IMG/VR virus record: IMGVR_UViG_3300043218_000040
Coordinates: 1 to 33,558 of that record
Reading direction: 5' to 3' (one strand)
Source of the DNA: a virus
Lineage: Duplodnaviria > Caudoviricetes
DNA: 33,558 nucleotides
This document shows positions 830 through 6,922 of this stretch, piece after piece. Each line of letters starts with the position of its first letter. Positions within the stretch are counted from its first letter, which is position 1. The position numbers and the translations under genes were made by a program. Below the pieces are notes generated by a model, which was given only the letters and a program-made list of their open reading frames with translations, searched no databases and had not been told where the DNA came from.

Positions 830-1093
830 TCAGTACCTCATATCCCCGTTGCGACGCAAACCTTTTGTCAAAGCTCTTTGCTTTGACCCTCGCGTGGTCG
901 GGTTACGCTTTTTCTTTACCTTGTCATGCCGGTACTCTGCGTTACTCCCAACGGCTGCACTCACCGTTCCACCCGTTGACACCTTCGGCTTACCCATGAA
1001 CTCTCTCCCAACACTCTGGGGTATCCCCAAAGTTGATTTCCCGGCTGCTGCCGCCGCCATCGCTCTTCCTTGCTTTGCTGTCTTAGCTGGCAT
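830..1093 (-). CDS. Small basic phage protein
   Basis: MPAKTAKQGRAMAAAAAGKSTLGIPQSVGREF resembles small proteins often seen near phage packaging genes; GGAGG upstream; overlaps terS stop. Confidence 0.65.
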   Translation of the reverse strand: MPAKTAKQGRAMAAAAAGKSTLGIPQSVGREFMGKPKVSTGGTVSAAVGSNAEYRHDKVKKKRNPTTRGSKQRALTKGLRRNGDMRY

Positions 1094-1494
1094 CAATCCT
1101 CCGTATCCAGAGGGCCACGCGGAAGTACGTGCTTAACGATTATCTCCCCACTATGCTCAAGCTGTTGCTGAGCGGTCGTGGGGAGTAACCGAGCATAGAG
1201 CTTATAGAATGCTGACGGGGACTGATCGGCCCAGTGAGCAAGGCGGGGGACACCTCCGATAAGCTCAAACGCATCCTGGAAGGCGTTGACCACTCTTTTT
1301 CGTTGTAGCTCGCGCGGTACACTAATCCGTGATACACCATTCCCGCTCTCTGCTAGGCCGGTCAGCTCCTGACCCATCTTAGCAGCATCACTGTAAGGTT
1401 GTTCATCATCGTAGACGCGCTCGGTAGCTGCCTGCTCTACCTCTTGGTAGTCTTCTGCTGGAATGAACTGCTGAACAGTTTGTTCCTTACTCAT
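1093..1494 (-). CDS. terS: Terminase small subunit (putative)
   Basis: AFELIGGVPRLAHWA..PSAFYKLYARLLP..LEHSGEI pattern typical of small terminases; first gene of late operon. Confidence 0.7.
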   Translation of the reverse strand: MSKEQTVQQFIPAEDYQEVEQAATERVYDDEQPYSDAAKMGQELTGLAESGNGVSRISVPRELQRKRVVNAFQDAFELIGGVPRLAHWADQSPSAFYKLYARLLPTTAQQQLEHSGEIIVKHVLPRGPLDTED

Positions 1495-1502
1495 GGGTCA
1501 GA

Positions 1503-1532
1503 ATTATACGCCCTCCATGCCCCGAATTGCAA
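1503..1532 (-). promoter_or_regulatory. sigma70-type promoter for terS/late operon
   Basis: minus strand TTGCAA-18 nt-TATAAT. Confidence 0.65.
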
Positions 1533-1618
1533 GCTATCTGTGAGGAGCTCACAGCCTCATTTTGTACCTATGGGTCGAGTCATAGTTATTGTGATTGTTG
1601 GGGTAAATGACCGGGGGG

Positions 1619-1783
1619 ACTTAACATAATAGAGTACTTACCATAATCCACTCCTTTAACATAATCCAGGATTTAACATAACGATCTCGGCTTAACATAA
1701 TCCAGCAGATTATTATGTAAAGGAAATCGTGCGTTATGTTAAGGAACATCCACTTAACATAATACATCTACATTATGTAAAAA
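1619..1783. repeat. Left array of 9 XerD-arm-like motifs (TTAACATAAT/ATTATGTTAA and variants)
   Basis: cores at 1621, 1638, 1656, 1673, 1692, 1712(rc), 1733(rc), 1754, 1772(rc); spacing 17-21 bp. Confidence 0.9.
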
Positions 1784-1811
1784 GAAGGGCCACCCAAAAT
1801 CTGGGTGGCCC
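1779..1811 (-). terminator. Rho-independent terminator of the 1827-2096 gene
   Basis: minus strand GGGCCACCCA-gattt-TGGGTGGCCC followed by TTCTTTTT. Confidence 0.85.
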
Positions 1812-1826
1812 CGCGCCCGGCGAATT

Positions 1827-2096
1827 TTACTTAATAACAAACGCCGGAGTTTGCCCATTTTTCGGGCTGGCCACCGTTAGGAACGTGACCCAGCCAGCCA
1901 CAGGTTCTGGCTTACCGGCGAACTTGCCGGATTTGGGCATGGACGGGCAGTTGCCCTTGGACGCCACGTGAGCGGCGAATGCGGAAACCGGCTTGCCCAC
2001 GAAACTGGACATGGCACCCTGCCAAGCCGAACGTGCGCCCCGGTACGTGCCCTTGAACTTGGGATTTACCGCAATTACTGGATTTTTAGTAGACAT
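1827..2096 (-). CDS. Small basic protein, putative DNA-binding; paralog of 13821-14144
   Basis: GC-rich ORF between AT-rich arrays; AAGG upstream; own terminator; shares RGARxxW, GKPVxxFA and GWxxF with 13821-14144. Confidence 0.8.
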   Translation of the reverse strand: MSTKNPVIAVNPKFKGTYRGARSAWQGAMSSFVGKPVSAFAAHVASKGNCPSMPKSGKFAGKPEPVAGWVTFLTVASPKNGQTPAFVIK

Positions 2097-2178
2097 AAGA
2101 TTTTACCTTAGCTAGTTGCGATGGCCAATTTGCCACCGTAAATTCATGGTAACACGGGTAATTTTCCAAATGGGCCTG

Positions 2179-2349
2179 TCTTTACATAATACGCAAATTA
2201 GATATTATGTTAAATGGCACGGATATTGCCCAGACGGAGTTTTACATAATATAAATCCATTTAACATAATATTGATGTTCAATAGATTTTATTATGTTAA
2301 ATGGACAAAATATTATGTTAAGAGTTCAATAGATTTCATTATGTTAAAT
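2179..2349. repeat. Right array of 7 XerD-arm-like motifs
   Basis: cores at 2181, 2204(rc), 2241, 2261, 2291(rc), 2312(rc), 2338(rc); includes a 27-bp direct repeat 2277-2303/2324-2350 with one mismatch. Confidence 0.9.
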
Positions 2350-2524
2350 GACGAGAGAGATTGACCGAGATCGACCGATTTTCCAGGAGCTTCGCTTCAT
2401 TCTTCAATGAAAATCTAGGATTTCGCTTCATTACGACCCGAAGTCGGAGATTTGATGGGAGGCGAGGGCCTCTGCCAGCTTCGTGTGTCGGTGGAGGATC
2501 CCTCGATGGTTGGAATATGACCTA

Positions 2525-2835
2525 GGTAGCCGGGTTGCCAGAGTAGCCAGCAGATTTAACGGGGCCATATATCACATATAGAGTCTAGCGTACACACGTA
2601 AGGGTGGGAATATACTGGCTACTCTGGCTACCTTGGCTACCTTCATATATGACCTGTTGTTTTTGTTAGTATTTCTTACTACCTTCGGGGTAGCCAGTAC
2701 CTTCTGTCTGGCTACCATTTCCCTGCTCGCTGGCTACCAACCTCTGCCAAAACACCCTATCGTTCACTAATGGTGCCCAACTTATGATATTTGGAGGGGT
2801 AGGCCGGATAATAAAATAACGAGCAGGGTAGCCAG
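2525..2835. repeat. GGTAGCCAG/CTGGCTACC iteron-like repeats, candidate replication origin
   Basis: triplet 2525-2550 inverted against triplet 2615-2641; more copies at 2689, 2708, 2730, 2827 inside the primase 3' end. Confidence 0.6.
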
Positions 2836-4759
2836 CAACCTTGATTTTGTTCCCACTATTAGCCAGTTCAACCCTAGCATTCTTTAATGCTCTATTCATA
2901 CCATTAACTTCGCCACGCTCTAAATCGCATAGACGTGTATGACCTTCCTTGTACAACCACAGGAGCTCTTTCGCGGTGGCCACGTATCCATCAACTTCAC
3001 TATGGCCAGCGACCAGCACAGTTTCAGGGTCATGTAGCAACTGCTGAACCCAGAGATCGAGTGTAGTGTGCGTCAATTCAATCATATCCTTTTTAGCACC
3101 TGTCATTGGTGCCATTCCCTTCGGGTTAAACTGCGCGAGATTACGCGCTAGAAGGTAGCCATATATCGCCTCTGCACCACCAGCATCCAGCCACTCCCAT
3201 CGGTGCTCCCAAAAGCTCTGGCTATTGGCCACGGCGATGTTACTGTCAGGCTCCACACATTCGGCCACATAGAACCTACGGTCATTGGCGTCCAGCTTAA
3301 ATATCCCCACTTGGTTCCCAGTTAGAAATACATTTAGTCTATTATCAATAAATATGGCGTCCACACCCTTCTTTTCCAACCGCAGTATGGGGTTCGTTAT
3401 CATGTCCTTTAGCTTGTTGTAGACCATCTGGTTGTTGCCACCGACCTCGTCAGTCTCTTCCACAACGAATAACTGCCGGGTCGCTACTTCCGCGTTAAAG
3501 TTCTTTTCAAGCACCGTAAGGGGGACACTGGCAACATTCTTATTCCCAAATATGCGCGTGAATATAGCAGTCACCCAGCCCTTCCCAATGCCCGGTGGTC
3601 CGACCATCACCAGCCCTGTGGTGAGCTTACCACCTAGATTCTGGAGCTGCCATGCCCACCAATCTAAGATATAATCTATTTCCTTTTCAGTAAATACAAG
3701 TTCCAGCCATTCGGTAAACAGGCTAACATCAGCAGCCAGTGGTTCACAGCCCATACCTTCCCACGCATTGTAAGACCCCCTTCCATCTGGAATGAGCCGG
3801 GGCTGGCCGGGAAGGTACACATAATCGTTGACCACTGTGCGCTCGGGCCATTTCATATATGTCTTAGCAACAGGAACAGGCTTACCGTCTTCATTCCATA
3901 CCTGCCTGTCAGCGTAGTGGCCTGATTCAAAATTACCGCGTGACATTAGCAGGCCATCAGATATCCTTATGCACATGGCGAGTTGGTCGCACCAACATAC
4001 TTCCTGTGCCATTATCTTTAGGTGGTCAGACATTGCGCTTGGCAGCGGTTCCGGCTCCCCATGGAGATAGTCTTGTGTAGCATCACGTCCATTCTTAGCA
4101 TAGTAATCATCTAGTCCCCACTGACCCTCCTTGGGTGGGGGAAGGACCAAAATGCTGGCGTGGACTTGATATTCAACCTCTATACTCGCCGATAGCTTAC
4201 GAGCTGCCAGCCAGAGTTTAGGGTTGGCTTCACATACATTTGAATCCATACATATGATAGGCTGAAGGCGTAGGTCGTGCCACGGCAGTAGCTTGAAGTC
4301 CCAGTTTAGCTTATTCGTATATGACCAGCCCCAGCATCCGCTCACCCCTACGGCATGGAAGCCAAGCATGGCACAGATATCTGCCTTCAAGTAGGACTCG
4401 CAAATGTAAACTTTATCGTTGTATTCCAGCTTGCCCCAAGGACTTAGTGGGCTGAAATATAGGCCAGGAACTTGGCCCTTCGGAGGTAGGAACTTAGGCT
4501 TGTCTTTATTAGATATGATACCTTGCTGGTAGAATACGCGAGCCCCGAGCTTGCCCGTGGCGACGCCCTCGGGGTCACGTAGCCTCCACACTATACCACG
4601 ACTAAGTCCTGGTACTTTTGGGAACCCCTGCTCATGCAGCCATGTGGAGGTCTTTACTTCCAAACCAAGCCGCTTCACAGTTATTTCATCAATTCCCCTT
4701 TCCGTTAAGTACTCTAGTTGCTCATTGAAGTCCGTAAAGGAAAAGGGAGTCGTTGCCAC
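2666..4759 (-). CDS. Primase-helicase (TOPRIM/DUF3854-like N-terminus, P-loop/DUF5906-like C-terminus)
   Basis: ICESYLKAD, GVSGCWGW, CMDSN, GLDDY Toprim-type motifs; Walker A GPPGIGKG; FVVEE; DRRF. Confidence 0.85.
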   Translation of the reverse strand: MATTPFSFTDFNEQLEYLTERGIDEITVKRLGLEVKTSTWLHEQGFPKVPGLSRGIVWRLRDPEGVATGKLGARVFYQQGIISNKDKPKFLPPKGQVPGLYFSPLSPWGKLEYNDKVYICESYLKADICAMLGFHAVGVSGCWGWSYTNKLNWDFKLLPWHDLRLQPIICMDSNVCEANPKLWLAARKLSASIEVEYQVHASILVLPPPKEGQWGLDDYYAKNGRDATQDYLHGEPEPLPSAMSDHLKIMAQEVCWCDQLAMCIRISDGLLMSRGNFESGHYADRQVWNEDGKPVPVAKTYMKWPERTVVNDYVYLPGQPRLIPDGRGSYNAWEGMGCEPLAADVSLFTEWLELVFTEKEIDYILDWWAWQLQNLGGKLTTGLVMVGPPGIGKGWVTAIFTRIFGNKNVASVPLTVLEKNFNAEVATRQLFVVEETDEVGGNNQMVYNKLKDMITNPILRLEKKGVDAIFIDNRLNVFLTGNQVGIFKLDANDRRFYVAECVEPDSNIAVANSQSFWEHRWEWLDAGGAEAIYGYLLARNLAQFNPKGMAPMTGAKKDMIELTHTTLDLWVQQLLHDPETVLVAGHSEVDGYVATAKELLWLYKEGHTRLCDLERGEVNGMNRALKNARVELANSGNKIKVAGYPARYFIIRPTPPNIISWAPLVNDRVFWQRLVASEQGNGSQTEGTGYPEGSKKY

Positions 4760-4840
4760 GTCATGCTCCTGGAGGGATTATAGTTAGTCTTTGTACTTAC
4801 CATAATACGCCCACGGTGCGCGAATAGCTAAACTCTTTAA

Positions 4841-5903: not shown

Positions 5904-6503
5904 TTAGACCAAGTTTTTATTCCGCTTAGTTATGCGAGCATCCCGAGCAGCCAGCCATTCGGCTGCATTAGGAAGGGGGAGAGACATAAACCCATGACAC
6001 CATGCTGCACAGAGCTCAGGGATTTGGGGCCACGGCATTCTAGAAAGACCATATTGTTGAGCTGATAGGAACCCCCGCCGAGTAAGTGCTAGGTCATTAC
6101 GGCCCCAAGACATTGGGCAACTAAGTGCTCGCTTCGCTGACCGTGTGCCCATTTCGTAGGCATCTTGAACACTGACCATTTTGCTGTAGATTTCTACAGG
6201 AACATAGCCCCATTCTTTGTGCCAGGAATTACGATGGGTTTGCACTTCCACAAGGGCTTCGTGCCTGCCCTTATTCTTACCCCATTCCATAGTGTACCTG
6301 TGAATATGGCCAGTGCGGACGTACAGCTTAGATGTAAACTTGATGTTACCGTAAGTCACCCGCCCGTAAGATTCTACGGTGCATGTTTCAGGACCAGTAA
6401 TTTCACGTACCCTAATCAGCTTACTGCCGTCACCAGTTGACCGGAGAAGAGTGCCTGCCTTAATTTCGCCATAGTAGGCTCGCGTTTTTATAATATCGTA
6501 CAT
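5904..6503 (-). CDS. Hypothetical early protein
   Basis: 199 aa ORF, AGGA upstream, first gene of leftward early unit. Confidence 0.7.
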   Translation of the reverse strand: MYDIIKTRAYYGEIKAGTLLRSTGDGSKLIRVREITGPETCTVESYGRVTYGNIKFTSKLYVRTGHIHRYTMEWGKNKGRHEALVEVQTHRNSWHKEWGYVPVEIYSKMVSVQDAYEMGTRSAKRALSCPMSWGRNDLALTRRGFLSAQQYGLSRMPWPQIPELCAAWCHGFMSLPLPNAAEWLAARDARITKRNKNLV

Positions 6504-6655
6504 AAGGTTTTCCTAGTTAACTACACCTTTATATAATACCACCTAGCGGCCCGATTTACATAAGTCTTTGTTCATCAAACAGGGAATAAAGATACCTTGC
6601 ACATCGGCCCAGCTTATGTAATTATGTAAATACAGGCTAACTTAGGAAATCAATT
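6504..6655. promoter_or_regulatory. Divergent promoter region
   Basis: AT-rich gap between divergent ORFs; minus-strand extended -10 GTGGTATTAT at 6533-6542; TTGCAC at 6597 on plus. Confidence 0.5.
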
Positions 6656-6922
6656 ATGGGTAATCTAGTATTTATCGGCAACATAGAAGATCAAGTGGGT
6701 GGCCACATGGTTCAAGTAACTCTTGAAGAATATCAACCCAGCAACCCCGAACCTGGGGAAATGCAGCTTCACTGCCGGGTACACCAGACTTTAATGCCAG
6801 CCGACCACCCCTTCACCCTGCGAGTCATTGCAATGTACCACGAATGGCAGGACCATTTCGCAGGTAGCACTGACTTGGACACTCACCTTTACAACTTATC
6901 ACAGGCCACGCACAGACCATGA
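6656..6922 (+). CDS. Hypothetical early protein
   Basis: AGGA RBS; ATGA coupling to next gene. Confidence 0.65.
   Translation: MGNLVFIGNIEDQVGGHMVQVTLEEYQPSNPEPGEMQLHCRVHQTLMPADHPFTLRVIAMYHEWQDHFAGSTDLDTHLYNLSQATHRP

Follow-up and report, generated by a model that had tools for sequence, protein, structure and literature searches.

Why should a phage that seems to encode no recombinase carry, next to its packaging genes, two dense arrays of XerD-type half-sites? The window (the whole stretch of DNA that was analysed, 33,558 bases) is a partial phage genome of 33.6 kb and about 48% GC, which lacks TerL, portal and capsid start. Sixteen XerD-type arms lie within positions 1619-2349, nine to the left and seven to the right of a small gene (1827-2096), and the density in the arrays is about one arm per 19 bp:

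1619-1783: left array, nine XerD-type arms starting at 1619, 1636, 1654, 1671 and 1690 (minus strand), 1713 and 1734 (plus), 1752 (minus) and 1773 (plus); outer faces outward at both edges.
2179-2349: right array, seven XerD-type arms starting at 2179 (minus), 2205 (plus), 2239 and 2259 (minus), 2292, 2313 and 2339 (plus); outer faces outward at both edges.
2179-2215: head-to-head arm pair with a 15-bp spacer that is conserved in the alignment, directly upstream of the inferred promoter of the small gene.

Judging from the sequence, the arrays are likely a platform for host XerD, and the reading that we prefer is that XerD monomers on them form a polar barrier to FtsK, with an overall probability of about 0.45.

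The initial annotation had reported nine and seven arms on the two sides of the small gene, five perfect 11-mers, and inverted pairs 10, 12, 15 and 22 bp apart. A recount agrees on all three points. Fifteen of the arms are exact copies of TTATGT(T/A)AA (the exception, at 1636, has G at position 6); the 11/11 copies are at 1671-1681, 2205-2215, 2259-2269, 2292-2302 and 2339-2349, with no others in the 33,558 bases; and the spacers of the head-to-head arms, in order, are 12, 10, 15 and 22 bp. The comparison with shuffled sequence that had been proposed gives a mean of 0.15 arms and a maximum of 3 in this interval over 2000 dinucleotide shuffles, against the 16 observed. The rest of the window holds three arms in 32.8 kb. 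These isolated arms are at 4795-4805, just upstream of the primase gene and kept in the related locus L001, and at 6555-6563 and 6622-6630, both in a divergent promoter gap (6503-6656). The region 1506-3410 is one identical unitig in sequencing run X1 and in run X2, so the arrays are not an assembly artefact.

The identity of the motif was examined on 232 distinct arm contexts from 19 family loci, the family having been collected through the small gene or terS. At the positions left free by the search, A occupies position -1 in 84% of the arms, T or C position -2 in 84%, A or G position 10 in 92% and T or C position 11 in 86%; past position 11 no base exceeds 43%, and the information stops there. 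The XerD arms of 30 gammaproteobacterial dif sites have the same limits and preferences, which bears out the identification as an XerD-type arm made in the initial annotation. A matrix built from these 30 sites finds 19 matches of at least 9 bits in the window, 16 of which fall within 1619-2349; on this matrix, 15 of the 16 arms score 11.8-23.7 bits and the arm at 1734 less than 9. The dif pattern was matched in 107 of 201 genomes, a tally that includes G052 and G130, neither of which is among the 30 sites. Integron attC sites, whose core contains GTT, were rejected as an identity, since the T/A variant of the arm breaks that core. Table 1 of PMC2731167 shows the same arm variants in natural dif sites.

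The arm variant also bears on the host. Desulfobacterota dif sites mostly end in AACT, and their commonest form occurs in none of the 232 family arms, which weakly favours a gammaproteobacterial host; we infer that the host would be a gammaproteobacterium. The four sequencing runs that hold at least half of the window's sampled words are all from marine sediment, and one of the runs, X1, may be where the window comes from. Members of the TerL cluster fall into conflicting bins (Nitrosomonadaceae and Bathyarchaeia), and the dif pattern was matched in 5 of 81 Dehalococcoidia genomes.

The arms do not have the geometry of a recombination site. The best XerC arm 6-8 bp upstream of an XerD-type arm scores 0.2 bits in the window and 6.2 bits among 304 arms, when genuine XerC arms score 10.8-17.6 bits on the same matrix (self-scores). 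Head-to-head pairs separated by 6-8 bp are absent from the window and account for 2 of 69 pairs in the family, both in L201 (6 and 8 bp); the commonest head-to-head spacer is 15 bp (15/69). No integrase is found among the window's 54 ORFs in a PHROGs scan, in agreement with the earlier statement that the window encodes no recombinase. As the window is partial, a recombinase was also sought in fuller relatives: the tyrosine recombinase domain PF00589 is found in none of 10 array-bearing phage records, six of which are at least 90% complete, while all 14 controls were positive. Host XerD would therefore be the simplest binder of the arms.

This arm is not specific to XerD, because three-recombinase elements use the same one at their ends; it appears from the sequences to mark Xer-type tyrosine recombinases generally. 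Scanning 185,579 genomes yielded 69 loci, many of which, by inspection, are mobile-element ends with a symmetric pair of arms 6 bp apart. The one that was examined further, L155, encodes three proteins with tyrosine-recombinase motifs, read by eye; we take such elements to be recombinase-in-trio (RIT) elements. The ends of this element (L155:5001-8512) are built of XerD-like arms, with a perfect 20-bp arm palindrome at one end. Similar ends occur in several phyla (L150, L161, L140, L191), with a short gene-free version in L172. Another arrangement was seen in a Dehalococcoidia bin (L135:4965-5265), where nine tandem XerD arms with a 30-bp period border a dif-like site, tail to tail with the XerD arm of the dif-like site itself. 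The proposal of a non-recombining platform for host XerD stands as regards the type of the arms, the missing XerC partner, the conservation in relatives and the need for a binder from the host; it is weakened by the sharing of the arm with three-recombinase elements and by the 6- and 8-bp pairs of one relative.

The arrays sit among the following features:

1093-1494, minus strand: probable terminase small subunit (terS), which opens the late operon; 39% to Xylella phage Xfas53 gp30/DUF5681, E 2e-7.
1503-1532, minus strand: predicted sigma70-type terS promoter, 10/12 consensus match.
1786-1812, minus strand: predicted intrinsic terminator of the small gene, a 12-pair stem and a T run.
1827-2096, minus strand: small gene, 89-aa protein with a predicted winged-helix-like DNA-binding domain.
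2215-2230, plus strand: sigma54-type -24/-12 box, TGGCACG-N4-TTGC, the only match in the window.
2278 and 2325: further motif TCTATTGAA, found nowhere else in the window, 5 bp from an arm.
2523-2740: iterons of the GGTAGCCA type, in inverted clusters around a central gap.
2666-4759, minus strand: primase-helicase gene, ending at the iterons; PHROG 1156 DNA primase, E 6e-31; DUF5906.

On the minus strand the order is thus primase, iterons, right array with the sigma54 box, small gene, terminator, left array and terS promoter. Neither the sigma54-type box nor the iterons had been noticed in the initial annotation. The arrays had been placed next to the packaging operon, and this is confirmed by the 32% identity (E 6e-13) of gene 1093-1494 to the gene directly before TerL in G006. 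In G001, TerL lies 2.2 kb downstream of the terS-like gene, and in fuller relatives of about 41 kb the terS-like gene is followed by TerL, portal and capsid. The terS promoter is kept in 9 of 10 aligned loci. The late terS transcript is probably leaderless, because the start codon comes only 8 nt after the -10 box, as it does in most relatives.

The iteron region is probably the replication origin, an assignment by inference; the interval from rep to terS in Rhodoferax phage P26218 contains a comparable cluster of iterons. Genes for a primase-helicase, a DNA polymerase, a helicase, a thymidylate-synthase-like protein and a 5-hmdU kinase are present in the window. Between 14188 and 17440 lie genes for a glycosyltransferase-like protein, a 5-hmdU kinase helical domain, a thymidylate-synthase-like protein and a kinase-like protein, a probable thymine hypermodification cluster distantly like that of YuA/M6. 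From this gene content the phage probably modifies its thymine, which may count against XerD binding.

Related phages keep both arrays in place, while spacers and copy number diverge. Arrays of at least three arms are found upstream in 17 of 23 family loci and downstream in 16 of 23. The array-poor relatives have no arms (L007, L212, L214), one (L210, L215) or two (L208). The armless and the one-arm loci have the same gene order as the array-bearing ones; the arrays are therefore dispensable, and the small gene and the arrays are separable.

Arrays also occur in unrelated phages, where they are confined to one region: 13 arms in G007, 12 in G008 and, in G009, 11 of 16 arms in a cluster. The loci of an earlier pattern scan, 109 in number, were sorted by eye. 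A wider viral scan gave 75 loci, of which 49 were dropped because they failed a GC threshold of 0.38 or a minimum of three distinct contexts; the 26 others have moderate GC and varied flanks, and 17 of them are new. AT-rich viral contigs matched the pattern mostly through simple tandem repeats, and such matches were discarded. A terminase gene lies within 3.5 kb of the array in 5 of 13 new contigs and was not seen in the other 8, in a scan of the one to three largest ORFs per locus (L441 and L483 left out). The arrays of L085, L300, L302 and G009 also adjoin terminase genes. As to the search for arrays near terS in related phages that had been suggested, relatives keep the two arrays; those of unrelated phages are often beside terminase genes. 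In an unrelated 66-kb phage (L466/L467), 22 arms are gathered in 7 kb, where they surround terS and stand immediately upstream of terL. No arrays were found in the cultured look-alikes P26218, Mvi-Yong1342-1, PW916 and Venkman, nor any arm in positions 1-12 kb of phage YuA. When the right array and the L086 array were compared by BLASTN with 50,697 phage records, only short AT-rich chance matches came back.

The enclosed ORF (1827-2096) is a real gene, with 22 close homologues, and its domain is found in 220 clusters. The AF2 model of the 89-aa protein (pLDDT 76.8) has helices at residues 21-30, 37-45 and 66-74 together with strands, and matches wHTH/RRE structures weakly (best Z 5.1, rmsd 3.3, 68 aligned). 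Nothing significant was obtained with Foldseek, PDB sequences or Pfam, and the Atlas gave only unnamed viral clusters; the searched cultured phages encode no homologue. The domain is fused to HNH, NOV_C, MrcB_N or AAA_5 in 5 of 16 proteins scanned, most of the others having unrelated domains or none. As such it is an N-terminal module of restriction-type nucleases (proteins P0089, P0091, P0103, P0129 and P0149), and in the same set of proteins it is found attached to ribosomal protein S2, PhaE and lumazine synthase as well. Rows with and without arrays are intermingled in the tree of the small protein, in which good support is limited to 3 of 15 branches.

The small gene is probably a stand-alone early unit with its own predicted terminator and inferred promoter. 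The position of the terminator hairpin is kept in relatives and its sequence is changed; arm 1773-1783 overlaps the U-tract. The product would be an early DNA-binding protein independent of the arrays, which possibly shields modified DNA from restriction. The motif TCTATTGAA is also present upstream of the small gene in relatives without arrays (L007, L210) and is a candidate operator of the small protein. A Sulfurimonas-type XerC arm within this motif was rejected, since it would leave a spacer of 4 bp. In L210 and L213 the small-gene cassette is duplicated in tandem, and every copy has promoter-like and terminator-like signals of its own; other repeat arrays lie between the copies in L213. 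No structured RNA came near the Rfam gathering score.

The sigma54-type box at 2215-2230 overlaps arm 2205-2215 by one base, a T that ends the arm and begins the box. It has the TGGCAC-N5-TTGC spacing of the -24/-12 consensus (PMC12316311) and points away from the small gene, toward the iterons and non-coding DNA. Of 23 family loci, 19 have a box between -125 and -188, and in 14 it is fused to an arm; L007 retains it without any arms. The fused pattern occurs at 12 viral loci from five phage lineages; a search of 401 gammaproteobacterial genomes, G052 and G130 among them, found it in none. Eight loci, four of which were found through a fused pattern, have 24 boxes, 12 of them fused, compared with 0.18 expected. 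The use of sigma54 by a phage has a precedent in Pseudomonas phage YuA (PMC5053324; bioRxiv 10.1101/2023.10.13.562163). Viral contigs also contain face-to-face sigma54 pairs (TGGCAY-N5-TTGC, 2-6 bp apart, in mirror orientation) at no fewer than 124 loci (L311-L434), with about 620 estimated. Their two N5 stretches do not pair; as the boxes overlap, both should not fire. Among the matches listed, 8 of 124 such loci have any arm, versus 9 for the reversed control, which is no enrichment.

How would XerD act on such arrays? In vitro, XerD alone binds a half-site with 2 bp of the centre with a KD of about 10 nM, compared with more than 100 nM for XerC, and it stops FtsK about 5-fold better from its outer face, neither synapsis nor cleavage being needed (PMC2800217). 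That the orphan arms are of the D type and keep positions -1 and -2 fits this mode of binding. We propose that host XerD monomers would load on the orphan half-sites without recombination, the many copies offsetting the short half-life of single monomers. The loaded arrays would be two outward-facing blocks that arrest the FtsK DNA pump and may halt it before proteins are stripped from the phage origin, the early gene and the packaging start. Outer faces are outward at both edges in 15 of 17 upstream and 14 of 16 downstream family arrays. This polarity favours FtsK over SMC unloading or titration and is suggestive only, because the family loci share ancestry and the arrays of unrelated phages are mostly one-directional. 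The window contains only 8 KOPS-like words, which counts against FtsK, and FtsK acts at the septum late in the cell cycle, which makes a benefit for a lytic phage less obvious.

It is likely, from the match of the arms to dif, that host XerD binds the arrays; given binding, the odds that FtsK arrest is the selected function are somewhat better than even. The barrier alone does not explain the sigma54 fusion. At one arm, the fused box might bring in another host complex, a silent one, in competition or cooperation with XerD. A wider proposal, which we hold only tentatively, is that unrelated lytic phages independently evolved a landing pad at origin and packaging sites, made of orphan XerD arms and, in five lineages, in-phase sigma54 boxes, as a polar XerD shield against FtsK, and perhaps SMC-type defences, that needs no phage protein.

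Several other explanations share part of this evidence. Host XerD could be an architectural or regulatory cofactor: much like IHF at lambda cos, it would bend or shield the DNA of the origin, of the pac site and of both divergent promoters (sigma70 and sigma54), and at the fused arm sigma54 would be its competitor. Arms directly adjoin both the promoter and the terminator of the small gene, and one base is common to an arm and the sigma54 box. Fusion is seen in 8 of 14 boxes, compared with 0.12 expected, at the four loci not found through a fused pattern; terminase genes are close to arrays in the contigs named above. However, the free variation in arm copy number and arm spacing does not fit a fixed architecture, the sigma54 box survives without arms in L007 and the face-to-face pairs are mostly armless; this explanation is unlikely. 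It is improbable that the arms form runs of sigma70 promoter elements or decoys, the opposite strand reading as a near -35 overlapping a near -10, with the 19-bp spacing giving a 17-bp spacer. There are 15 promoter-like matches, most of them made of arms, against 2.9 expected, 46 of 98 direct arm spacings in the family are 18-20 bp, and sigma70 elements would be natural partners for sigma54 boxes. But none of the 232 family arms has the perfect -35 variant, the bases at positions 10, 11 and -2 agree with dif, spacings in unrelated phages range from 14 to 54 bp, and the promoter-like reading of the arms near terS points away from terS. Equally improbable, and argued by analogy, is that XerD on the arrays would unload SMC-type complexes, either Smc-ScpAB or SMCs with a defence role such as Wadjet, in the manner of the XDS of Bacillus: an artificial XDS array blocks Smc-ScpAB, but the passages that cite this work (PMC11840125, PMC11894783) cover Bacillus only, and no link between XerD sites and Wadjet was found in the literature searched.

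The next readings have still less in their favour. Replicated phage genomes could titrate host XerD off dif and thereby block dimer resolution and division, and the 16 sites per genome (up to 22 in L466) suit this; titration, which we regard as very improbable, predicts neither clustering by terminase genes nor conserved polarity nor sigma54 fusion. Binding of a dif-mimicking motif by TerS, the 89-aa protein or another phage protein had been put forward as the alternative to XerD. The 89-aa protein does lie between the arrays and has a predicted DNA-binding winged helix, but its gene occurs without arrays, and a search with its profile in G007, G008, G009 and five other array loci detects no homologue. 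The unrelated array-bearing phages, for their part, have different TerS/TerL families and no candidate binding protein in common. Binding by TerS through convergence is unlikely because of these differences, and the earlier alternative is not upheld; a phage protein as the binder is hardly probable. Least probable of all are XerD-XerD recombination sites that would resolve or circularise phage DNA. The L201 pairs, and the symmetric 6-bp pairs and direct arms at the ends of three-recombinase elements, speak for them; against them, 67 of 69 pairs fall outside 6-8 bp, none in the window falls inside, and every proteobacterial dif site in PMC2731167 has a 6-bp centre.

If the polar barrier of XerD monomers is right, phages make recurrent, non-recombining use of XerD and borrow its barrier role, a counter-measure made of DNA only and taken from terminus biology. 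To our knowledge, the phage uses of Xer known so far are all recombinational (integration at dif, multimer resolution). The arrays would be a natural substrate of high density on which to ask if XerD blocks FtsK or SMC in organisms other than Bacillus, the arm variant could serve as a host-prediction signal for uncultured phages, and the in-phase XerD-sigma54 composite suggests that a recombinase and the sigma54 polymerase are linked in a way so far unreported. Neither a phage array of orphan XerD arms nor an XerD-sigma54 composite was found in the titles and abstract openings searched, which included few subscription papers.

Among known systems, mobile DNA that exploits host Xer proteins includes IMEX attP and the plasmid sites cer, psi and pdif. 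These sites carry complete C+D cores for integration or resolution, whereas the phage has D arms only and no sign of integration. RIT element ends (L155) use the same arm family, in several copies, with one head-to-head pair and direct repeats, but each element brings three recombinases of its own and retains a 6-bp pair and a 17-bp repeat, while the phage encodes none and its spacing is free. Chromosomal dif, as described with XerCD and FtsK (PMC2731167, PMC2800217), has the identical XerD arm and the two adjoining central bases; the phage arrays differ by having no XerC arm or 6-bp centre, many copies and a location off the chromosome. Phage YuA shares sigma54-type promoter use and a 5-hmdU kinase-type gene (PMC5053324; bioRxiv 10.1101/2023.10.13.562163), but its first 12 kb hold no arms, and the box in the window faces non-coding DNA and is fused to an XerD arm. 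The XDS, non-dif XerD-binding sites in the terminus of Bacillus subtilis (Karaboja et al. 2021, as cited in PMC11840125 and PMC11894783), are likewise XerD-type sites without recombination geometry, and an XDS array is a barrier to a DNA-tracking motor. They differ from the phage arrays in lying in the chromosome terminus, whereas the arrays are beside a probable origin and terS on a phage contig, belong to a lytic phage, are dense (about 19 bp per arm), of gammaproteobacterial type, outward-facing and fused to sigma54. What is new here is the outward orientation of XerD outer faces at the array edges, the in-phase fusion of arm and sigma54 box in five phage lineages, and the adjacent iterons of a probable origin.
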